Below the pieces are notes generated by a model. It did not search any database. It was not told the DNA's origin and saw nothing but the letters and a program-made list of their open reading frames with translations. Positions 7,598 through 60,983 of a stretch of DNA of 64,000 bases are shown one piece after another. Position numbers and translations under genes: made by a program. Numbering within the stretch: the stretch's first letter is position 1; each line of letters begins with the position of its first letter. Source of the stretch: a virus. The stretch lies in the IMG/VR virus record IMGVR_UViG_3300017991_000096, positions 15,246-79,245 of that record. One strand, 5' to 3'.

Positions 7598-8793
7598 TGG
7601 CTACCTGGCTTACCATCGACGGTGACGACCTTCCGCTGATCCCTCTGCTGGAGCAGATCTTCGGTACGCTCGACCCGTTGCTGAACGCTGCGGCTGCGGC
7701 TGCTCAGACTGCCGCCACGGCACTGGAGGTCATCGAGACGCTCATCGGTGTCGTGGGCGACCCGAACGAACTGGTGCGCCAAGCTATCAATGCCCTCATC
7801 CAAGACCTGATCACGAATCAGGTCAACGTGCTGCTCATCAAGCCCACGTTCCTGACGGACCAGGGTAACCGGGGGCTCGCAGGGTTCGGGCGTATCATCC
7901 AAGACGCGCTCACTGACCAGGGTGACATCAACCGCCCCAACTTCGGAGCCAACGACACCAGCGGGGGCGTGGTCATCGCTGTTTTTGCCCCCAGCTTTCA
8001 GGACTTGGTGCCACTGGCACAGGCGTTCCAGTCCCTCTTTGGCGACGGCTGGCGCGAGTTCATCGACTACGTCAACAGCCTCCCCGGAGAGCGCCCGCCC
8101 TTCAACCTGGTCGGGGCTACTGGCACCGTCACGTCGCTGGTGGAGGGGGCCGATCCCTCCTCGACCTTCATCGACGCCGACCTGGCCGACTTGCAGAACA
8201 ACACCGGCAGCCAGTGGAACGGATACCGCATCGACGGCTTCAACGGCCGCAACGCAGGGCAGTCCGCTATCGTCAACTTTTTCAACCCCTTCGACGGTCG
8301 CTTCTTCCTCGATCCCGGCTTCTCCAACGACCTGGAGGTGGGCGATGCCTACGTCCTCAACTACATCCCGCAGAGCAAGCCTCCCGACTGGTACACGAAG
8401 CGGGTCATCGACGTGTTCCCTCCGCTCGCGCTCGCCGTCGATGCGCTCGCACGAGTCCGCGACCAGATCCCCAACGCTGGCGGTCCTCTCCAAGACGCGC
8501 TCAACGTCTTGTCTCGGCTGATCAACCTGCTCCAAGCCAAGGTCGCCCTCATCCAGAACATCATTGGTCAGATCCAAACCATCGTGGCTCTGCTCCAGCA
8601 GCTTGGTAACGTCACGAACTTGAACGTGCTTCCCATCCCACCGCAGAACTTCGGTGACGTGGGCTTCATCACCGAGTTCTTCCGCGCCCAGAACCCGCCG
8701 CCCGTGGCAGCGGACTCGGTCGCACTGGGCCTCGTGCTCTACGGCGGCAGTGGCATCTACGGCACCCTTCAACAGATCCTACCCATCCCATGA
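7597..8793 (+). CDS. virion/baseplate-associated protein of unknown function
   Basis: ATG overlaps the spike stop (TAATG); long amphipathic helices flank a beta-rich insert; lies between spike and gp25-like genes. Confidence 0.6.
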   Translation: MATWLTIDGDDLPLIPLLEQIFGTLDPLLNAAAAAAQTAATALEVIETLIGVVGDPNELVRQAINALIQDLITNQVNVLLIKPTFLTDQGNRGLAGFGRIIQDALTDQGDINRPNFGANDTSGGVVIAVFAPSFQDLVPLAQAFQSLFGDGWREFIDYVNSLPGERPPFNLVGATGTVTSLVEGADPSSTFIDADLADLQNNTGSQWNGYRIDGFNGRNAGQSAIVNFFNPFDGRFFLDPGFSNDLEVGDAYVLNYIPQSKPPDWYTKRVIDVFPPLALAVDALARVRDQIPNAGGPLQDALNVLSRLINLLQAKVALIQNIIGQIQTIVALLQQLGNVTNLNVLPIPPQNFGDVGFITEFFRAQNPPPVAADSVALGLVLYGGSGIYGTLQQILPIP

Positions 8794-9248
8794 CTGACGA
8801 GTTCCAGCCCCTCATCCCCGACTTCGACCCTGGCGAGCCTGGTGCTGCGCTCGGCAAGGGCATGGCGTGGCCGCCCCGCGAGGACCCGACGACGGGTGAC
8901 TTCAAGCGCGCTGAGGGCGAGGAGTCCATCTCGTCCTGTATCCTCAACCTCATCACGACGGTCTACGAGGAGATCCCGCTGCTGGAACTCATGGGCACCC
9001 GCATCGAGAGGTTGCTGTTCTCGAACGACCTCGACGGCTTGCTTGAGCTTTTCCGTCTGGAGGTGGGCGAGGCGCTCAAGCGGCACGAGAAGCGGGTGTT
9101 CTACCTGGGCACGACCTTCGAGGTGAGCGGCACAGACCGCAACACGCTGTCGGTCAAGGCCCGTATCCGCTACCGCGTTCGGGCGACTGGACAGCCCGAC
9201 ACGTTGGTGTTCCCCTTTTCTCTGAACGGAACCCCGGAGGGCGTCTGA
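8790..9248 (+). CDS. gpW/gp25-like baseplate wedge protein
   Basis: GKGMAWP...I...I.NLITT..EE.P....GT.I..LLF...EKRV...LVFPF. Confidence 0.85.
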   Translation: MTDEFQPLIPDFDPGEPGAALGKGMAWPPREDPTTGDFKRAEGEESISSCILNLITTVYEEIPLLELMGTRIERLLFSNDLDGLLELFRLEVGEALKRHEKRVFYLGTTFEVSGTDRNTLSVKARIRYRVRATGQPDTLVFPFSLNGTPEGV

Positions 9249-9249
9249 C

Positions 9250-11298
9250 ATGGCTATCGGAGCAGGTATTGATCTCATCAAGGACAACTCGGTTGTCATC
9301 GACTACACGAGCCTTGACGCCCCTGCGGTGGAAGCTGATCTGCGGACCTACGCGCAGACGCAGTTCCATGACCGCTGGACGAACTTCAACGACAGCGAGT
9401 TCGCCGTCGTGTTCCTCAAGATCCTGGCCTACCTCACCGATCTGATCACGTACCAGTTCAACGTGACCATCGGTGAGACGCAGCCTGCGACGGCGCGGCG
9501 TCGAAAGAACTTCATCAACATCGCCAAGGGGTACGACTACGAGTTGCCGGGGCCTGTGGCGTCGAGCGTCGATATGGAGGTCATCTCCAACGTCGCCCAG
9601 ATCCCCTACCCCCTCGACGCGGAGAGCTTCAAGGTGGGCGCCGCGAACGGGTCCGTGTTCATGCCCTCCGCTGACGTGCTCATCACCGCGAGCCCCCAGA
9701 CGGTGCCCTTCACGAACGGCGACCTACAGGACCAGGAGTTGCTCGGCACGTCGGACGGCAGCCCCGCCCAGGAGTACGAGCTTGCCCAGGCCCCTGTGAT
9801 CTGGAGTGCTGGGGCTCCTGTGCTCACCGTGACCGTAGCTGGGGTGCCTTGGAGCCGAGAGCGGGCCCGCGTCAACGCGCAGAGCACCAGCGAGGTCTAC
9901 TTTGTCGAGACGGACGAGGCCGACACCACGCGCATCGTCTTTGGTGACGGCATCAACGGCAAGATCCCATCGTTCGGCGCGGAGATCCGAGCCACCTACA
10001 AGGTCGGCGGCGGTACAGCGTCGAACATCAACCCTCGCACCATCTCCACCATCCTGACGCCTGTGCCTGGTGTGCTCTCGGTCCAGAACCCGGCGCGGGC
10101 TACGGGCGGCAAGCCGCGGCAGAGCCTCCGCGAAGCCAAGAGTGCCCTGCCCGCCTCGATCAAGACCAACGACCGGGCGGTGACTGCGGATGACTACGCC
10201 GACATCCTGTTCGCTCCCGATGCGCCTTCGGGTACGGCGAAGGCGGGGGCGGCTGCCGGATTCACGAACGTGGTGTTCGTGTGGGCTGTGCCTGCCGGGG
10301 GTCCGCCCTTGTCGAACACGCTGCGAAACGAGATCGCGGCCTACCTCGACATCAAGAAGGTTGTAGGTAAGCAACCTATCGTCCTCGACGGCGTACCGAT
10401 CAACATCCGCATGACCCTTGGTGTGTACGTCAAGCCCAACTTCCGCGAGGACGACGTTGTGGCGAAGGTCCGCTCCCTGTTCGTGACGGAGGACCCGGCG
10501 CAGACCGTGCAGCAGGGTGTGTACGACTTCAACAACGTGGGCATGGGTGCGCGCGACGACGAGAACGAACCTCAGATCACGCAGAACCGCATCCACACGC
10601 TCGCGCGGTCGCTGCTGGAGTTCGGCCTCCAGCGCATCGTCATCGAGGAGCTACGCACGACCCCGGTGACCAAACAGCCTCGCCAGCGCGTCAACGCTGG
10701 CAACGGCGGCATCTCCAACGTGGTGTACCTGACGCCCCTGCTCGTCCCCAGACGCGAGTTCAGGATCCTCTGGACCTCCGCCACTGACTTCGAGGTCTAC
10801 CGCCGCATCGTGGGCGCCTCGACGCTCATCACTGACGACTCGCTGGTGGACAACCGGCTCAACCTGGACAACGCGCCAGACTTCACCCTACCGCTCCCCG
10901 CTGGCTCTCAGTTGAACCCCAACCGGGACCAGACGCTCGCGTTCGACATCGACACGGCAGCGACAGTGGGTAACACCATCGTCAAGGATGTCTTGGTGGC
11001 CGGCTCCCTGTTCGGCAACGCAGCACCCGGAGACAACTACTACTTGGAGGTTTTCGACGGCGTGGGATCTGTCGGCGCCCCGACCAACGCGACGGTCACC
11101 TACCAGGCTGCGGCAGGCGACCTGGAGTTCAACGTGTCCTCTGGCACCACGGCGTTCACCTCTGGTGACGAGATCCTGTTCGACGTGTTCCCTCTCGTCG
11201 GTGACATCATCTTGCGCGAGGACGAGTATCCGAACTTCCAACGCGACGCCAACGGCATCGCCATCGACCTCCTGACGCCGGTTCGGGACGCGGAGTAG
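9250..11298 (+). CDS. baseplate J / gp6-like wedge protein
   Basis: IDYTSLD, WTNFNDSE, LGTSDGSPAQ, FGDGINGKIP, Y.VGGG..SN, RAVTADDY. Confidence 0.9.
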   Translation: MAIGAGIDLIKDNSVVIDYTSLDAPAVEADLRTYAQTQFHDRWTNFNDSEFAVVFLKILAYLTDLITYQFNVTIGETQPATARRRKNFINIAKGYDYELPGPVASSVDMEVISNVAQIPYPLDAESFKVGAANGSVFMPSADVLITASPQTVPFTNGDLQDQELLGTSDGSPAQEYELAQAPVIWSAGAPVLTVTVAGVPWSRERARVNAQSTSEVYFVETDEADTTRIVFGDGINGKIPSFGAEIRATYKVGGGTASNINPRTISTILTPVPGVLSVQNPARATGGKPRQSLREAKSALPASIKTNDRAVTADDYADILFAPDAPSGTAKAGAAAGFTNVVFVWAVPAGGPPLSNTLRNEIAAYLDIKKVVGKQPIVLDGVPINIRMTLGVYVKPNFREDDVVAKVRSLFVTEDPAQTVQQGVYDFNNVGMGARDDENEPQITQNRIHTLARSLLEFGLQRIVIEELRTTPVTKQPRQRVNAGNGGISNVVYLTPLLVPRREFRILWTSATDFEVYRRIVGASTLITDDSLVDNRLNLDNAPDFTLPLPAGSQLNPNRDQTLAFDIDTAATVGNTIVKDVLVAGSLFGNAAPGDNYYLEVFDGVGSVGAPTNATVTYQAAAGDLEFNVSSGTTAFTSGDEILFDVFPLVGDIILREDEYPNFQRDANGIAIDLLTPVRDAE

Positions 11299-11301
11299 TC
11301 C

Positions 11302-14300
11302 ATGCCCTTCGACAACACCCTGATCCCCACCGTAAACACCGGGCGCGTGCGTGCCTGGGGTTCCTTGTGGCGCGGCAGCGACGACCAGCAGGACCCAGGC
11401 GTCGGGGTGAACTCGCTCATCTCTGCCGTACAGCTAGGGTTCATGCCTCGCGCCTCCCCTGACTACCAGCGCTCAGGTGACGCGACCTACCTGCACGCCT
11501 CGACCCCGCTGGGGCCCGTGCTTGTGCTCGCCCGAGAGAGTCTGCTCGACAGCGCCGTGCTCGACCCGGCCATGCCTACCGCGCTCCCTCACGCTGAGTC
11601 TGCGCTCTACAGCTTCGGGTTCAGCACTCTGCCCTTCGATGAGTTGGCTCGCGCATCCGCCATCTTCGGCGGCATTGATGGAGGCACGTTTAGTATCTAC
11701 GTCCGACCCGTCAACCTCCTCGCGGCGTCGGACTACGGGGTCTACTGGAACAACGAACTCGGAGTTACCAACGATGATCTTCGCATGGTGTTCACGCCGG
11801 TCGGGCCGTTCCTCGTCATCCGGGGGCCCTCGACCTTCCGGCCAGGCACGGAGGCTATCTATCTCAAGTATCTTTGGGACGGTAGTCCTGCTGCACCAGC
11901 TTCGGAGATTCGTATTGACTGGCAACCCTCCGAGCCGTTGCTGGTGGACTTCACACGACTCCACGTCGTAGCCCTGAACGACGGGCGTCTCAACTTCTAC
12001 TACCGGGTGTTCAACTCCAACCTCGACTTCGAGGGTACAGCCGTCGTCGGCTACAACGCGGTAGCTGGCTACGGGCTCACTGGATCGCCTCCCTCACCGT
12101 TCGCGTTCGCAGGTGCGAACCTCATCACGTCCCCGCGTCTGGTGCTCCAAGGCGTTGTGCCCACCGTGAGCTACAACGGAGGCCGGCGGCACCCGGTGAC
12201 CAACCAGATCCTCCTCGCCATGGAGCCCGCAGGCTCTACGCCAGGCAAGCAGGTTCACTGGTATTTCGGGGCCGGCGCTGGGCTCCGTCTCGATTCGTCC
12301 CCTCTCGTCTGGGACGCCGACACGCACCCCAACCTGTTCGGTGGTCGGCTCGCTCAGGCTCAACCGGACAGCACCGTCAACGTGGTGAACGTGGGCTGGG
12401 CCGGCAACAGGGCAGGCACCCCGTTCAAGGTCATGGCGGGCAACGTGCTCGGTGAGACTGTCACGAGCTTCAAGGAGTTCGTGAACACCTACGACACCGC
12501 CATCGACAACGGGGCCACGGCGGTTCGACCCTGCATCGGGGAGATCGGAGTCGAGGACATTCGTGGCGAGCCCAACCTCGGCGGGCGGCACAAGCTGGTG
12601 GACATCCTGTCGGCGCCCATCTCCAACGACCCTACCGACATCGGAGGGTACAACCCTACCTTCGACTTCTTGAACGCTCGCCTAGTGTCCAGGCTCGATG
12701 AGGTGGAGGGCTCCGACGTGTTCTCGGAGCTAGGCCCCAACGGCACGCTGAACGACGTGGTGCCTGGCCTCGGCGTCGTGCAGAGCGGTCAGACATTCGC
12801 CCAAGACACCAGCGTCATCACCTACGGTCCCGACCCTGTGCTGGACGTGACCGAGTTCGTGTTCTCGGCTTGGATGTCGTTCAACGCGAACCAGCCGGCT
12901 GTGACCCGGTCCATCGCTACCAAGGATGGCGGGGCGGGCCCCAGCTTCCAGCTACAGTGGGACAACGCTGCCGCCGTGCTGCGTCTGACCTTCACCACCG
13001 TTCTGGATGGTGTGCTTTCGTTCGCCTCCAGCGTCACCCTGGAGCGTGGTGTCCCCTACTACGTCACCGCGACCTACGACGGCACGCAAGCCGCCATCTA
13101 CGTCAACGGGTGGCTGGTGGGGGCTCTCGTCGCCCCTGTCGGGGGTGCCCTCGACGTGCAGCCGACGCCCCTCCTCCTCGGAGACTCGACCGGCACCACG
13201 AACCCGCTGCTGTCCTGGTACGGCTTCATTGACGATGTCGTGTGGGGCTCTGGGGTCGGCGTCGATCACTACACCGTCTTGAAGAACTACCAGTTGGGCC
13301 TCTACATCCGAACGGACTCGGGCAAGCCTGGCGGTCCTGTGCGGACCAGCCGCGGCGCTGGAGCGAGCGACTCGGATGGCGTGGTGGCGACGGCTACGGC
13401 TACCCGACTTGGCGATCCAGCGGTGCGTGTCTACACGGCAGCCCTGCGCTACCAGAACGTCTCGGTGGACCCAAACTATGAGCAGGGCGGCGTGCTCGAC
13501 ATCTGGCAAGCACGCGAGGATGGTGTGGCTGACCCTCGCGGGCCGATTCCTCTCCCCGCCCCCGTGTTCGACTACACCCCAGGTCCGCCAGCACCCGGAG
13601 CGACAGGGGTCGAACTCAAGGATCGTCGGGTTAGCTTCGATATGACCATGCTCGACGCGGGCAACTCGACGGACCTAGTCCTCGTGATCGGCTTCCGCGT
13701 ACCGGGCGATGTCTTTCAAGTCTGGGCCTTGCGCTTCGACCCCGACAGTGTGGACGCCGTCACTCAGGCGGACTGGCGCATCGTGACGGTCATGGACTTG
13801 GCAGCGTCCGACGAGTACCCCACCGCTCTGGGGGCCACGCTCTACGCGAACGATGCCTACCCGATGGTCATGCTGTACGTGGACGAGCCAGTCGCGGCGG
13901 CGGATCGTCGGCTGTACTTCATACGAGAGGCAGACTACAGCAGCGGCGATCCTGGGTCCTCCACGGCGCCCTACGTGCCCATCGCGGATCTCATCATCAA
14001 CGCTGCGGTGACCGGCTCCTTCGGCTTTGAGAACTTCGCACCACCAGGGCGCGACCCGGTCATCACCGGCATCGTGGCGCGCGAGATCATCGTCGGGCAA
14101 GGCTGGCACCCTCAGTGGGCCAACAGTTACCTCATCATCTTCTCGTTCGGGAGCCTGCCGCTGGCGCCTGCATCGTTCGACGCCGTCGAGAACACGGTCG
14201 CCACCGTAGCCTACGAGGTGAGCCGTTCGAGCCTCGACGCTGGTGACCAGCCCATCGTCCCGCTCACCGGAGCGATTCGATCCGTCAACTCGAAGCAGAT

Positions 14301-55773: not shown

Positions 55774-55786
55774 CATCCGCCATTCG

Positions 55787-55813
55787 ACCGGCCCATGCGG
55801 CCGGTTTTCTTTT
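55787..55813 (+). terminator. intrinsic terminator
   Basis: ACCGGCC-CATGC-GGCCGGT followed by TTTCTTTT. Confidence 0.75.
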
Positions 55814-55966
55814 GCCCTGGGCCTGCGCGGAACGCGCACATATGCTTAGGGTAAGCATGGCAAGGCGCCCCATCGGCGCCACCGAAAACGCGCGGAACGC
55901 GCAAACCCCCCTCTATTCCCTGCCCTAGCTGTAGCTACAGCGTAAATAAAATATGTAGGTGACCCC

Positions 55967-55995
55967 TTGACCTCCCATGGTATCCATACTACATT
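55967..55995 (+). promoter_or_regulatory. sigma70-like (probable early) promoter
   Basis: TTGACC-N17-TACATT with upstream AT tract TAAATAAAATAT in a GC-rich genome. Confidence 0.7.
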
Positions 55996-56075: not shown

Positions 56076-56678
56076 ATGGCCAAGAACACCAAGAAGTCCA
56101 CCGCCAAGTCCACCACCAAGAACGCCGGCAGCAAGAAGTCCACCAAGAAGTCCGCTCCCAAGAAGGTCACCGCGGCCAAGGGCGGTAAGAGCAAGGGCGG
56201 CAAGAGCGGCAAGAAGAAGGCGCCGCCCAAGGCGGGTGAGGCTGCCAAGCAGTTGAGCGGCGAGGCGTTCCGAAAGTGGAACCACGTCGCTGCCATGCAG
56301 GAGGTCTGGCCGAACGCCCAGCGCGGTCACGTCATCAACGTCCCCAGCGCCACGGTCGAGGGCCGCACCGACATCGCGGTTGTCCTCTACCCAAGCAACG
56401 CGGAGTCGGACGGGTCCGCACTCATCATCCGCAACAGCGGAAAGTACAGCGCCCAGAAGTCGGCCAAGCTGGCCGAGCAGTTCTCCAAGCTGGTCGGGAT
56501 GCTGGCCGACCCTGGCGACGACTGCGACGCGCACCAGAGTGAAGCCGGCGACTGGCTCCACTTCATCGACATGGTCGTCCCTCCCGCCGTCCAGCGGGTC
56601 CTCGACAACCAGACGGCGGCACCCGCCAAGAAGTCCAAGGCGAAGGCCAAGGGCAAGCGCGGCAAGAAGGCCGCCTAG
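56076..56678 (+). CDS. protein with histone H1-like K/S/T/A-rich tails at both ends
   Basis: AAGGAG RBS; MAKNTKKSTAKSTTK...KKSAPKKVTAAKGGKSKGGKSGKKK and C-terminal PAKKSKAKAKGKRGKKAA. Confidence 0.7.
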   Translation: MAKNTKKSTAKSTTKNAGSKKSTKKSAPKKVTAAKGGKSKGGKSGKKKAPPKAGEAAKQLSGEAFRKWNHVAAMQEVWPNAQRGHVINVPSATVEGRTDIAVVLYPSNAESDGSALIIRNSGKYSAQKSAKLAEQFSKLVGMLADPGDDCDAHQSEAGDWLHFIDMVVPPAVQRVLDNQTAAPAKKSKAKAKGKRGKKAA

Positions 56679-56745
56679 TCGAAACGCCCCCGCTTCGGCG
56701 GGGGTGTCTACCGGACCCGGCCCCCCGGTACTGATGAGACAGGCC
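56673..56745 (+). ncRNA. type II hammerhead ribozyme (HHR1)
   Basis: Stem II GTC/GAC; GAAA 56681-84; stem III CGCCCCCGC-TTCG-GCGGGGGTG; GUC cleavage triplet 56706-08; stem I TACCGG/CCGGTA; CTGATGA 56731-37. Confidence 0.92.
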
Positions 56746-56762
56746 AGAAAGAGTCACCCACC

Positions 56763-56951
56763 ATGCAAACCAACATCGAAGTCGTCCCCTCCCAAGGCTC
56801 CAACGGTATCCGCTTCATCGCTCTCATCCTCTGCCCCGGTCAGCCCCTCAAGCTGTACCTCGGTCGCAACGGCAAGCCCACCGCGGCCCGTCACCTTGCC
56901 CGAGAGTGGAAAACCGAGCGCGGTGCCAAGACCGCTGTCGCCAGCATCTAA
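56763..56951 (+). CDS. small hypothetical protein
   Basis: 62 aa directly after HHR1; WKTERGAK motif. Confidence 0.55.
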   Translation: MQTNIEVVPSQGSNGIRFIALILCPGQPLKLYLGRNGKPTAARHLAREWKTERGAKTAVASI

Positions 56952-56991
56952 CCCGCAACCTCAACAACCCAAGCACCAAGGAGTGAGAGTC

Positions 56992-57768
56992 ATGTTCAAG
57001 AAAAACGATACGGTCAACTTCAAGCGCAACGCCATCAAGGGCTCCCCGGTCGTGTGCATCGTCCGCCACGTATCCGCCGATGGTAAGACCATCCGCCTTC
57101 GCCCCTACATCGGGTCGGAGTCGGATGCTTTCGTTGTCAATCTCACCCGCAAGGGGTGGGCCATCGGCAGCACCGGCAGCCGGTGCTTCATCACCCCGAC
57201 CGACAGCAGTCCCAAAGACAAATGCGAGAACTGCGGTGGCACCGGCTGCATCACCGCTAGGGTGCGGCGCGTCGAGACGGGCAAGTTCTCCCGCGCCTTC
57301 GAGGCGGTCTGCCCCGTCTGCTGCGGCACTGGGTTCGCCCCCGAGGAGCCCGAGGAGGAGCCCGAGGTCGAGGACATGGGCCCGCTCGATCAGATGGTCC
57401 GCGCTGCCGCAAAGTACCGCCACGGGCACGACTACATGGAGAGCGTGGTCGAGCCTGCCCTGGAGTACATCGCCAGCCAGACCCCGACGCACGACAGGTG
57501 GCGTCACTACTACGCCGAGGTGACGGACGTGCTCGACCGTAACGTCAACTGCCATGGCAAGGGTGCCGCCATCTCCGAACTCACGGAGTGGATCGAGGGC
57601 GAGTGCCGCAAGCGTCGCGCCGCGTACAAGGCCGGTCTAAGCATCAAATGGGACACGCTCAGGAAGCGGGTCCAGACCGTCGTGGAGAACACGGGTCGCA
57701 AGCCCTACAAGCGCAGCCGCCGGTCGCTCGCTGCGTTCTACGCTTCCAACCTTCCCCTTACCCAGTAG
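56992..57768 (+). CDS. hypothetical protein with DnaJ-type zinc finger
   Basis: AAGGAG RBS; CENCGGTG and CPVCCGTG repeats. Confidence 0.65.
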   Translation: MFKKNDTVNFKRNAIKGSPVVCIVRHVSADGKTIRLRPYIGSESDAFVVNLTRKGWAIGSTGSRCFITPTDSSPKDKCENCGGTGCITARVRRVETGKFSRAFEAVCPVCCGTGFAPEEPEEEPEVEDMGPLDQMVRAAAKYRHGHDYMESVVEPALEYIASQTPTHDRWRHYYAEVTDVLDRNVNCHGKGAAISELTEWIEGECRKRRAAYKAGLSIKWDTLRKRVQTVVENTGRKPYKRSRRSLAAFYASNLPLTQ

Positions 57769-57808
57769 CCCCAACCATCAACCCATCGAAAGTAAAGGAC
57801 AAAGAGTC

Positions 57809-59287
57809 ATGCGCATCAACACGAACATCATCGCCCTCACCGCCAACCGCTTCCACGGGTCGGGTATCGACGCCGACTGGACAGTCACGGAAACCGATAG
57901 CCTCACCTGGGAGGTCAGCAACGATTTTCACTGCATGGACGAGAACGGGTACTACTGCGGGTGGCTGCCCTTCACCATCATCCTCGACTCCGAGGGTCGC
58001 GTGGACGAGGTCGAGATCGCTGAGGAGGATGAGGAAACCTTCGGTGACGACATCGACGTGGAGGGGCTCAAGGAGTACCTGGCCGATGGGTGGAACGCCA
58101 TGCTCGACTCCACGGTCGAGGGCCTCTCGGACGACCCCGACAGTTGCGACATCTGGGAGGACGACGACATCACGGTCGAGACTGACCCCGATTTCGACAC
58201 CTGCTACGTCAAGGCGGTCGATCGTCTGCCCACGCCCGAGCCCGACTTCGAGTCCACGGAGGAGTGCTTGCAAGCCATGCTCACAGAGAACACCGGGCGG
58301 CACATGCTCGACAGCGGCGGCGCCTACGGTCGCCACTGGGAGCGCAACCAGGGGGTTGACTTCTCCAAGACCCCCACGGGGCACATCGAGTTCCACCGTC
58401 CCGACGACTGGTACGTGATCGTGTCCATCTATCACTTCCTGGTCAACAACCTCGACTACTGCGGGGAGCTTGACGCCGAGTTCCAGCGCTTCGCCACGAG
58501 CACCGAGTACGCAGACGAGCCGTGGGGCTCATGCGTCCACGACTGGGTCTGGCGCCGCTTCGGTCACAAGGAGGACGCCGCCACTGGGCCCTACGGTGAG
58601 AACCCCATGACCAAGGACGATCCGACGTGGGGCGGGTACACGTACAACGAGGAGAACTCCTTGAGTCAGGATTTCATCTGGGCTCAATGGACCGTGGACG
58701 GTGAGACTTTCATCGCCATCCAGATCCACGGTGGCTGCGACGCTCGCGGTGGCTTCACCCGCCCCCGCATCTTCTCGGACAGCGGCAACAGCGAACTGGG
58801 GTGGCTCGACTGGAACCGGGTCGGCATGGGCTGCGACAAGTGCCGCTGCCACGCCTACGGCGACGGGGGCGGCTGGGAGTGGTACGACGAGGACGGGCAC
58901 AGCCTCGACGTGACGGTGGCCGGCGACGGTGAGGACGATGACCGGGATGAGGAGGACAACGCCCCCGACCCCGCCGACGCGCCGCGTCTCAAGGGCAAGA
59001 AGTGCGCCGTGATCTTCGACGCGGTCACCGAACGCTGCACGGAGGAGGTCTACACGATCGAGCGCGTGTACCCTGCCCGTGGCGGCCTGTGGGTTGACCT
59101 GGACCGCCTCGTGGAGACTGGGGTCCACACGGCGTCGATGACCGTGACGCTGGATCAGGTCCGACTCCTCGAAGGTGAACTCAGCCAGGACGAGGACGGG
59201 CACGGCATCGCCCGGTGGGACGATGAGGCCAAGACCCTCCGGTGCCCGTGCTGCGAGAGCGGGCACATGAGCGCTGGCCCCTTCTAG
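57809..59287 (+). CDS. acidic hypothetical phage protein
   Basis: 492 aa; HMLDSGGAYGRHWERNQ, TYNEENSLSQ, IQIHGGCDARGGFTRP; terminal CPCC. Confidence 0.7.
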   Translation: MRINTNIIALTANRFHGSGIDADWTVTETDSLTWEVSNDFHCMDENGYYCGWLPFTIILDSEGRVDEVEIAEEDEETFGDDIDVEGLKEYLADGWNAMLDSTVEGLSDDPDSCDIWEDDDITVETDPDFDTCYVKAVDRLPTPEPDFESTEECLQAMLTENTGRHMLDSGGAYGRHWERNQGVDFSKTPTGHIEFHRPDDWYVIVSIYHFLVNNLDYCGELDAEFQRFATSTEYADEPWGSCVHDWVWRRFGHKEDAATGPYGENPMTKDDPTWGGYTYNEENSLSQDFIWAQWTVDGETFIAIQIHGGCDARGGFTRPRIFSDSGNSELGWLDWNRVGMGCDKCRCHAYGDGGGWEWYDEDGHSLDVTVAGDGEDDDRDEEDNAPDPADAPRLKGKKCAVIFDAVTERCTEEVYTIERVYPARGGLWVDLDRLVETGVHTASMTVTLDQVRLLEGELSQDEDGHGIARWDDEAKTLRCPCCESGHMSAGPF

Positions 59288-59356
59288 TCGAAACGTCCCC
59301 GCCGAGGCGGGGGCGTCCGTGGGAGGTAGCCTACCCACGCTGAATGAGACAGGCTA
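59287..59356 (+). ncRNA. type II hammerhead ribozyme (HHR2), core variant CUGAAUGA
   Basis: GTC/GAC stem II; GAAA 59290-93; stem III CGTCCCCGC-CGAG-GCGGGGGCG; GUC 59315-17; stem I CGTGGG/CCCACG; loop TAGCCT complementary to 3' tail AGGCTA. Confidence 0.85.
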
Positions 59357-59394
59357 ACCAAACAACCAAGCTAAGGTCCAAGGAGACAAGACAG

Positions 59395-59805
59395 ATGGCA
59401 AACTCAAAAGGTAAGAACCCCCGTGACAAGCAAGGCATCAGCGCTACCAAGTGGTCGGCAGACATGCGGGCCCGCTTCCCGGTCCCCGAAGGCTGCAAGG
59501 TGCTTGTCAGCTTCCCACACGGGCCCGATGGCGGGACGTGGGATCAGAGCACGGTGAACCTCGCCACCTTCTACGCCGAGGAGCGGATCGGCACCTACCA
59601 CTCATGGTCGGAGGCGCTCGCTGCCCTCGAAGCCGTGGACCGGGGTGAGGACCCGCCCAAACCTCGCCCCGCTCGCCGCGGTGCCCAGCATGAGCCCTTG
59701 AAGGCAGTGCTGCTCGCCAAGGCCGACGCGCTCGACGCTGAGGCGAAGCGGTTGATCGACAAGGCCGCCACCATCCGCGACCTTGTGCGAGAGGGGGTGA
59801 TCTGA
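59395..59805 (+). CDS. hypothetical protein
   Basis: AAGGAG RBS after HHR2. Confidence 0.6.
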   Translation: MANSKGKNPRDKQGISATKWSADMRARFPVPEGCKVLVSFPHGPDGGTWDQSTVNLATFYAEERIGTYHSWSEALAALEAVDRGEDPPKPRPARRGAQHEPLKAVLLAKADALDAEAKRLIDKAATIRDLVREGVI

Positions 59806-60002
59806 TGGACACCTACAAGGTCATTCGCTTCTACCAGAACGTCAACAAGTCGCGCCGGACCATCGCACGAGGTCTGACTCTTGAGGAGGCGCAGGAGCAC
59901 TGCTCCGATCCCGAGACGAGTTCTCGGACCTGCACTACCGCGGCAGGCAAGCGACGCACCGCGCAACACGGACCCTGGTTCGACGGATACGAGAAGGAGT
60001 AG
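59805..60002 (+). CDS. small phage protein
   Basis: YKVIRFY...RTI.RGLTLEEAQ.HC.DPETSS...PWFDGY; TGATG coupling. Confidence 0.65.
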   Translation: MDTYKVIRFYQNVNKSRRTIARGLTLEEAQEHCSDPETSSRTCTTAAGKRRTAQHGPWFDGYEKE

Positions 60003-60006
60003 AACG

Positions 60007-60261
60007 ATGCTGCAAGAGTACCAACGCCTCAACTTCACCACCATGCTGCGCGCCGCCGAGGACGGGAACCTCTGCATCATGGAGTGCCTCGACAAGACCA
60101 CCAACGAGGTCGTCGCCGTCGTCTGTGCCGCCGGCTATGACCCCGTCAACGGCGAGGTCGCTATCACCCCCTTCGCCGTGATGGCCGATGATGGGTACGA
60201 GCGCTTCTCACCCCCCAACCCCGATGGCGGGTTCTGCCAGGAGGAGGACGACAATGGGTAA
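60007..60261 (+). CDS. DUF6117-like small protein
   Basis: NF.T.LRAA.DGNL..MEC.D..T.E...V.CA.....G....TPF......YE...PP. Confidence 0.6.
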   Translation: MLQEYQRLNFTTMLRAAEDGNLCIMECLDKTTNEVVAVVCAAGYDPVNGEVAITPFAVMADDGYERFSPPNPDGGFCQEEDDNG

Positions 60262-60802
60262 GAGCTTTCGATGGCTCTCCGGTGATACCAACTGGAGCGA
60301 GCAAGGCGGCCGATGGTTCCGCCGCGTCAGCGAGTACCGCTATCACGTCATGGAACTCATGCCCAAGAGGTTCGTAGGCTTCGCTGGCGGCGACCCCTAC
60401 ACCGTCAACCTCATCATGGTGGACCTGGACGAGCTAGCGACTGTCGGCGCCGCGGCGCACAGCCGAGGATGGTATCTCCAAGGCAGCGGATGGGACGGCA
60501 CGAAGTGTCGCTTCCAGATCTACGATGTGAAGGCACGCACCCTCATCGCCACTGGTGACGCTGCTGTCCGAGCGACCTTGGTTGACGCTATCGCTGATAT
60601 GCCTGCCCCCTACTCGCACCCGATCGCGTCGTGGCGAGGTGAGAACCACACCGCCCTTCGCAGGATGGCACGCGAGCGCAGCGTGGCCGAAGGTGACCGG
60701 GATCCTCCCGCCACTTGGAGGGACAAGGCAGAGCACGACGGCACCCGGTGCCCTGACTGCTCGCAGACGAGGTGCCCACCCGACTGCCCCAGCAACGCAT
60801 AG
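60254..60802 (+). CDS. hypothetical protein
   Basis: GGAGG RBS; Cys-rich C-terminus. Confidence 0.55.
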   Translation: MGKSFRWLSGDTNWSEQGGRWFRRVSEYRYHVMELMPKRFVGFAGGDPYTVNLIMVDLDELATVGAAAHSRGWYLQGSGWDGTKCRFQIYDVKARTLIATGDAAVRATLVDAIADMPAPYSHPIASWRGENHTALRRMARERSVAEGDRDPPATWRDKAEHDGTRCPDCSQTRCPPDCPSNA

Positions 60803-60821
60803 AAGGTCGATACCAACCACG

Positions 60822-60854
60822 AGCCCGCTGGTGACCCCAGCGGGCTTTCTTTTT
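60822..60854 (+). terminator. intrinsic terminator closing the 56-61 kb cassette
   Basis: AGCCCGCTGG-TGACC-CCAGCGGGCT followed by TTCTTTTT. Confidence 0.8.
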
Positions 60855-60983
60855 GGTCCCCTCCACACCTACATCGTCTCACATGAACGGATGTTCAGGG
60901 CCCCAGCGGGGGGCCTGGCAACGGGCCGCGCGGGCCCTACTTCGGGACCGCGTCAAACCGGCCTAGCGCCCACGCTACGGGCC

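Follow-up and report, generated by a model that had tools for sequence, protein, structure and literature searches.

The subject of this study is a 64-kb stretch of DNA, called the window below, which comprises bases 15246-79245 of the 79,245-bp record of an uncultivated virus (IMGVR_UViG_3300017991_000096, ~90% complete), and in particular one operon in it that contains two hammerhead ribozyme motifs, here called HHR1 and HHR2. A preliminary description had proposed that the RNA lying between the two predicted cleavage sites has ligatable ends and could circularise. On the basis of the analysis presented here, we consider it likely that the operon transcript is cut by the two type II hammerheads into three linear, hairpin-capped mRNAs. 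All coordinates refer to the window, and the features described lie on its + strand.

The operon and its genes

The operon is bracketed by promoter-like and terminator-like sites. On its upstream side, a terminator-like hairpin at 55786-55815, with an 8-bp stem (6 GC pairs) and a T-run (TTCTTTTG), would close the preceding transcription unit. It is followed, in the only AT-rich gap, by a sigma-70-like promoter sequence (TTGACC, 17 nt, TACATT; 55967-55995), from which transcription likely starts at ~56002. At the other end, an intrinsic-terminator-like hairpin of 11 bp with a T-run (60821-60856) marks the end of the operon, and both ribozymes are thus inside a predicted transcript of ~4.85 kb.

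The first gene (56076-56678) encodes a basic protein of ~200 amino acids, rich in Lys, Ala and Gly, which starts with MAKNTKK after an AAGGAG site and gives no Pfam or PHROG match; KGGKSKGGKSGKKK-type tracts are seen in its sequence. Its TAG stop codon overlaps the first bases of HHR1. Between the two ribozymes there are three open reading frames, each with its own AGGAG-type ribosome-binding site, in agreement with the three genes (56763, 56992, 57809) that the preliminary description had assigned to the excised RNA. The first of them (56763-56951, 62 amino acids) obtained no function from the Pfam and PHROG searches. The second (56992-57768, 258 amino acids), with an AAGGAG site 8 nt ahead of its start codon, has a weak match to the CXXCXGXG zinc finger (PF00684, E 0.001), which is below the cut-off. 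The third (57809-59287, 492 amino acids) belongs to the family phrog_11344, and HHR2 begins within its TAG stop. Downstream of HHR2 there are four distal genes, at 59395-59805, 59805-60002, 60007-60261 (DUF6117) and 60254-60802. Apart from the DUF6117 and phrog_11344 matches, the Pfam, PHROG and PADLOC searches assigned no function to the operon genes.

Detection and anatomy of the two ribozymes

A search of the 64-kb window against Rfam (cmscan) returned only two RNA-family matches, both of them to Hammerhead_II (RF02276) and both on the + strand. HHR1 scores 45.8 bits (E 3.4e-6) and HHR2 38.6 bits (E 2.6e-4), which is in both cases above the curated gathering score of 37 bits for this family. 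The same two Hammerhead_II matches are returned when the whole genome is searched, and a permissive Rfam search found no further RNA family in the window up to E 0.5. With a hammerhead pattern, two matches are obtained in the window, against 0.01 expected from shuffled sequences.

HHR1 (56677-56748) is a type II hammerhead with a canonical core, supported by the Rfam score, the fold and a descriptor match. Its stem II is formed by GUC (56678-80) and GAC (56738-40), and is followed by GAAA (56681-84), a stem III of 10 bp (56684-93 with 56698-707) closed by a UUCG loop, a stem I of 6 bp (56709-14 with 56725-30) and the CUGAUGA segment (56731-37). A pseudoknot of 4 bp, identified by eye, joins the GGCC of loop I (56719-22) to the GGCC of the tail (56742-45). 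Every conserved core element is present, namely CUGAUGA, GAAA, the A15.1-U16.1 pair and a nucleotide other than G at position 17 (C17). Base counting on the sequence places the predicted cut after C56708.

HHR2 (59286-59358) is built in the same way, with GUC (59287-89) and GAC (59348-50) as stem II, a stem III of 10 bp (59293-302 with 59307-16, CGAG loop) and a stem I of 6 bp (59318-23 with 59334-39). Its pseudoknot, also assigned by eye, is longer, with UAGCCU of the loop (59327-32) pairing over 6 bp with AGGCUA of the tail (59351-56). The core elements are all present save for one inserted nucleotide: where the consensus is CUGAUGA, HHR2 has CUGAAUGA (59340-47), with an extra A after A6, and the Rfam alignment places an insert at the same point. 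The predicted cut is after C59317.

In both copies stem II is open while loops close both stem I and stem III, which is the type II topology. The pseudoknot between loop I and the tail that follows stem II is the defining trait of this class (Perreault et al. 2011, PMC3088659), and in a set of 172 distinct phage hammerheads the pairing of each loop I with its own tail is far better than that of permuted pairs (z = -18.9). When the two copies are compared with each other, the halves of stem III are ~80% alike and those of stem I wholly different, and the differences in stems and pseudoknots are compensatory. Each ribozyme begins within the TAG stop of the upstream gene (TAG followed by TC), and the 3' ends of HHR1 and HHR2 lie 15 and 37 nt, respectively, ahead of the next start codon, a short way in front of its ribosome-binding site. 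These stop codon overlaps and the extra core A of HHR2 had not been part of the preliminary description. Judged by their sequences, both motifs are genuine type II hammerheads.

A contrary reading is that the operon RNA stays uncut, the two motifs being look-alikes that arose by chance or relics that have lost their activity. HHR2 is just 1.6 bits over the Rfam threshold and its core departs from the consensus, and 4 of 18 consensus hammerheads were inactive in vitro (Perreault et al. 2011, PMC3088659). This has to be weighed against the number of pattern matches, which is far above the chance expectation given above, and against the fact that both motifs are on the coding strand, in intergenic gaps, and abut stop codons as most phage hammerheads do. 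Furthermore, the compensatory nature of the differences between the two copies speaks against the relic reading, as does a variant at position 56705 in other metagenome contigs, where T56705C turns a G-U pair in stem III of HHR1 into a G-C pair. We therefore regard the relic scenario as extremely unlikely.

A further observation on HHR1 is that its 3' half (56701-56746) is ~90% identical to a hammerhead found on other, more abundant contigs of the same sediment metagenomes (runs X9 and X10). The context there is unrelated, with another 5' half and another downstream gene.

Arrangement of hammerheads in phage genomes

A pattern scan for type II hammerheads with a GUC/GAC stem II, which found them in >120 viral contigs, allowed the locus to be compared with others of its kind. 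Two to nine hammerheads on one strand are found in 32 of 116 locus-strands; arrays that use both strands do not occur. In 63 intervals between same-strand hammerheads, the median spacing is 473 nt, the 90th percentile 1128 nt and the longest interval 4634 nt. The stop codon of a long open reading frame ends at most 3 nt from stem II in 119 of 179 hammerheads, compared to 17 of 600 random positions, and the commonest arrangement is UAG followed by UC with a one-base overlap, exactly as at HHR1 and HHR2. The next start codon is found at a median distance of 23 nt downstream. The ribozyme and the ribosome-binding site together fill the entire intergenic gap.

Another possibility examined was a translation-gated switch, suggested by the fact that the stop region can pair with the pseudoknot tail in both HHR1 and HHR2. 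This pairing is not enriched over the 172 phage hammerheads (z = +1.7), and it was consequently put down to chance. A much denser array than that of the window was encountered in another record (L038, IMGVR_UViG_3300008255_000242), where seven pattern matches lie a few hundred bases apart at ~8400-11320.

Gene-flanking hammerheads in phages are in themselves not new, as this layout has been known since 2011 (Perreault et al., PMC3088659). In prophages, such ribozymes flank single genes or short gene blocks whose identity varies (Perreault et al. 2011, PMC3088659). The present locus resembles these clustered prophage and phage hammerheads (PMC3088659) in the open 3-bp stem II and the loop I-tail pseudoknot, in the placement of the copies on the same strand, in intergenic positions around a short run of genes without known function, and in the role proposed for them, which is the processing of polycistronic phage mRNA. 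It differs in that the interval is long, 2609 nt compared to the median given above, and in that the core of one copy contains the rare extra A.

Proposed processing of the operon transcript

We now consider what the two ribozymes would do to the operon RNA. In the proposed mechanism, one transcript of ~4.85 kb runs from the promoter near 55995 to the terminator near 60850, and both hammerheads, acting in cis, cut it, probably while it is still being transcribed. Cleavage would yield linear mRNAs of ~0.7 kb with one gene (piece A), ~2.6 kb with three genes (piece B) and ~1.5 kb with four genes (piece C). Piece B would span 56709-59317; its length of 2609 nt, given already in the preliminary description, is borne out by base counting from the ribozyme coordinates. 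Its 5' end is the first paired base of stem I of HHR1, and its 3' end consists of the stem III hairpin of HHR2 followed by GUC.

More generally, the upstream products would end in a GC-rich stem III hairpin of 10 bp and a GUC bearing a cyclic phosphate, while the downstream products would begin with a 5'-OH on the first paired base of a stem I hairpin. Such ends should shield the RNAs from exonucleases and from decay that depends on the 5' end; they should also make each of the three gene groups independent of the others in stability and translation. According to this mechanism, the 2.6-kb RNA remains linear.

What the DNA itself shows is the two motifs, where they lie and the signals around the operon; cleavage in vivo, protection by the RNA ends and the slower rate of HHR2 are inferred. 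That both motifs exceed the Rfam threshold and are located on the coding strand in intergenic gaps supports the processing mechanism, as do the compensatory differences between the copies, the promoter-like and terminator-like sites at either side and the generality of the layout in phages. Tandem hammerheads have been found to cleave polycistronic transcripts of ~2 kb both in vitro and in E. coli, and mRNA processing was proposed (Perreault et al. 2011, PMC3088659). For type II hammerheads, cleavage in vivo has also been observed in Desulfovibrio vulgaris, by cyPhyRNA-seq.

Three points weigh against this mechanism. First, the extra A of HHR2 corresponds to a variant of low activity called 'A6a', and HHR2 might accordingly cut poorly. 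Second, the promoter and the terminators are consensus matches only. Third, the protective role of the RNA ends is deduced from general knowledge of bacterial mRNA decay. A hairpin at the 5' end of the primary transcript was also looked for, and the predicted fold there is no better than that of shuffled sequences (z = 0.89).

The role of hammerheads in phages is an open question (PMC6155905, PMC6765202). For testing the mRNA-processing model, the present locus offers a clean case: its operon is well bounded, one of its two ribozymes has the canonical core and the other a variant, and the three products expected from cleavage differ in size.

The variant core of HHR2

It is HHR2 that has to cut for the 3' end of the 2.6-kb RNA to be set free. 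In the tests of Perreault et al. (2011, PMC3088659), hammerheads with an insertion after A6 (the 'A6a' variant) showed low activity, and the authors raised the idea that the slower variants in phages may be under regulation. The same extra-A core recurs in other phage type II hammerheads (L215, L216, L225, L227, L235 and others), five of which pass a strict descriptor and ~8 of which are recognised by eye. Since it recurs together with stems and pseudoknots that differ from case to case and are nevertheless intact, the extra-A core is probably a maintained but slower form, as far as can be judged from sequence comparison. By the same reasoning, HHR2 probably cuts more slowly than HHR1. With a slower HHR2, the 2.6-kb RNA may be formed later or only partly, and a 4.1-kb intermediate may persist.

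It is possible to go one step further and assume that cutting is tuned or conditional. HHR1 would then be constitutive and HHR2 slow or dependent on conditions, the main products would be the 0.7-kb and 4.1-kb RNAs, and the ratio of the 2.6-kb to the 4.1-kb RNA would be a device that sets the timing or dosage of the distal genes. The core CUGAAUGA, read together with the reported low activity of the A6 insertion and the suggestion that slower variants may be regulated (Perreault et al., PMC3088659), fits such a scheme, and so does the occurrence of the variant in at least 5-8 independent phage hammerheads, where it is apparently maintained. The longer pseudoknot of HHR2 (6 bp vs 4 bp in HHR1) may compensate for the insertion. 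This last feature can also be turned against the scheme, in that the 6-bp pseudoknot and the 10-bp stem III together may give HHR2 an adequate speed in vivo. We find tuned cutting rather unlikely, and it is in any case a refinement of the operon-processing model and not a true alternative to it.

Hypothetical joining of the RNA ends

In the circularisation scenario, the 2609-nt RNA becomes a circular, exonuclease-resistant mRNA with three genes, its ends being joined by an RtcB-type ligase of the host or by the hammerhead reaction running in reverse. Bacterial ribosomes can start internally, and such a circle would hence be translatable. The end chemistry is favourable: as the preliminary description had pointed out, the 5'-OH and 2',3'-cyclic phosphate produced by hammerhead cleavage are the substrate ends of RtcB, which agrees with established chemistry as restated in PMC8782182. 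It had also noted that both ribozymes use the same GUC/GAC stem II, and the fold of a 72-nt junction verifies that the joined ends give a complete chimeric hammerhead. This consists of stem III of HHR2 and stem I of HHR1 around a canonical core, with the pseudoknot of HHR1, and its stems III and I fold as they do in HHR1. In vitro, RtcB circularises ribozyme-cut retrozyme RNAs with yields of 30-80% (PMC7229834).

There are, however, a number of arguments against this scenario. The preliminary description had directed attention to rtcB in the rest of the phage genome, and the 79-kb record (~90% complete) encodes neither RtcB nor an RNA ligase of the Rnl1/Rnl2 type nor RtcA. Of 50 other phage records with hammerheads, just 1 has RtcB. 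This one, the record of L074 (G097:C1:14772-15881), holds a complete genome of 59.7 kb that has terminal repeats, and its RtcB scores 187 bits.

The ends of RNAs known to circularise are juxtaposed by pairing, while the sole link between the ends of the excised RNA is the 3-bp stem II, across 2.6 kb. The end-to-end complementarity of this RNA is the same as that of shuffled sequences (z = 0.01 for the terminal 100 nt and 0.71 for 200 nt). The RNAs known to circularise after ribozyme cleavage have lengths of 170-1000 nt, and even for such short RNAs self-ligation by the hammerhead amounts to just 1-3% (PMC7229834).

A further problem would be the stability of the product. In the predicted fold the rebuilt ribozyme keeps to local pairing, with a canonical core and no obvious sequestration; it is predicted to be active and should cut the circle open again. 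In a fold of the whole circular RNA, stems I and III of the rebuilt ribozyme stay local, where it should be said that long-range prediction is unreliable for a translated RNA of 2.6 kb. One way around the problem would be that a host RtcB closes the 2.6-kb RNA and that ribosomes which terminate at the UAG overlapping the rebuilt hammerhead hold this ribozyme unfolded, thereby delaying its re-cleavage. If this were true, a bacterial virus would have a natural mRNA that is both circular and polycistronic.

As to direct indications of joining, Perreault et al. (2011, PMC3088659) looked for spliced and for circular RNAs from tandem hammerheads of prophages and detected neither, and the DNA contigs of four metagenome runs contain no joints at the cut sites. 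The match between the two stems II is no sign of a special design either: GUC/GAC is the form usual in this group, being present in 156 of the 179 hammerheads (a sample that was seeded with this very pattern), and any neighbouring GUC/GAC pair would be compatible in the same way.

Taken together, of the earlier proposal of a circular 2.6-kb RNA the end chemistry and the geometry of the rebuilt hammerhead stand, while circularisation itself gained no support. We consider the circle very improbable, and the version with ribosomes holding the ribozyme open is less credible than the circle alone. A natural circular phage mRNA would be notable, although the present evidence does not make it likelier here than at the many other phage hammerhead pairs.

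The ends generated by the two ribozymes could in principle also be joined in a splicing-type manner: the 5' product of HHR1, whose last base is 56708, would be ligated to the 3' product of HHR2, whose first base is 59318, and the three middle genes would thereby be lost from part of the transcripts. The end chemistry and the stem II compatibility are the same as for the circle, and the option was raised by Perreault et al. (PMC3088659), who did not detect the product. Also here, the phage is without a ligase and only 3 bp would hold the pieces together. In addition, the ribozyme rebuilt at this joint would have the variant core. Of all the readings considered in this work, this is the one to which we give the least credence.

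Relation to ribozyme-made circles and insulators

It is instructive to compare the locus with systems in which ribozyme cleavage is known to be followed by circularisation. In known ribozyme-made circles, extensive pairing brings the ends next to each other, and the ribozyme is hidden within the circle by an alternative fold. Viroids (Avsunviroidae), plant and animal retrozymes and synthetic twister circles (PMC7229834, PMC4918200, PMC7761336) share with the operon RNA the presence of ribozymes at both ends, the ends bearing a 5'-OH and a 2',3'-cyclic phosphate, and the rebuilding of one hammerhead when the ends are joined. Those circles are non-coding, 170-1000 nt long and closed by a cellular tRNA ligase, whereas the RNA considered here would be a 2.6-kb mRNA with three genes. 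It has no end-to-end helix, its phage carries no ligase, and its two ribozymes are different copies and not a repeat.

A different kind of comparison can be made with insulators of the RiboJ type. These are engineered elements, derived from a satellite RNA hammerhead, which leave a defined 5'-OH hairpin end and uncouple the downstream gene. The likeness is that a self-cleaving ribozyme is placed between expression units; the arrangement at the present locus is natural, and it would also shape the 3' end of the upstream mRNA.

The phage and the 492-residue protein family

The phage is an uncultivated marine virus of roughly 63% GC, without close relatives in the collections searched. A megablast search gave no cultured-phage relatives, single-protein scans of viral contigs (P0004 and P0003) gave no relatives, and no cultured phage has a DNA polymerase A more than 30% identical to that of this phage.

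Finally, we turn to the largest gene between the ribozymes. The family of its 492-residue product, phrog_11344, is very widespread in phages, with >450 relatives in viral contigs. It has the invariant motifs TG-x-H-x-LDSGG and HGG-x-D-x-RGG, and in addition a C-terminal CxxC. The protein has no sequence match in Pfam, PADLOC or the PDB, and an Atlas search gave no usable match. An AlphaFold model was obtained with a predicted local distance difference test (pLDDT) score of 73.7, for which Foldseek returned no PDB fold match at E <= 0.001. The protein is probably an uncharacterised enzyme.

Hammerhead_II is found in none of 50 whole phage records that bear a homologue of this protein, which means that the flanked gene family is not tied to the ribozymes. 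This agrees with the inconstant gene identities described by Perreault et al. Profile scans provided 160 loci with distant homologues, and only two of these (L290 and L294) carry hammerheads, with another type of stem II. In these type II hammerheads stem II is CUC/GAG, and they lie upstream of the distant homologue, four of them at 140-1598 in L290 and two at 140-504 in L294. In L290, a repeated AACAATACT motif is present on both sides of each ribozyme.

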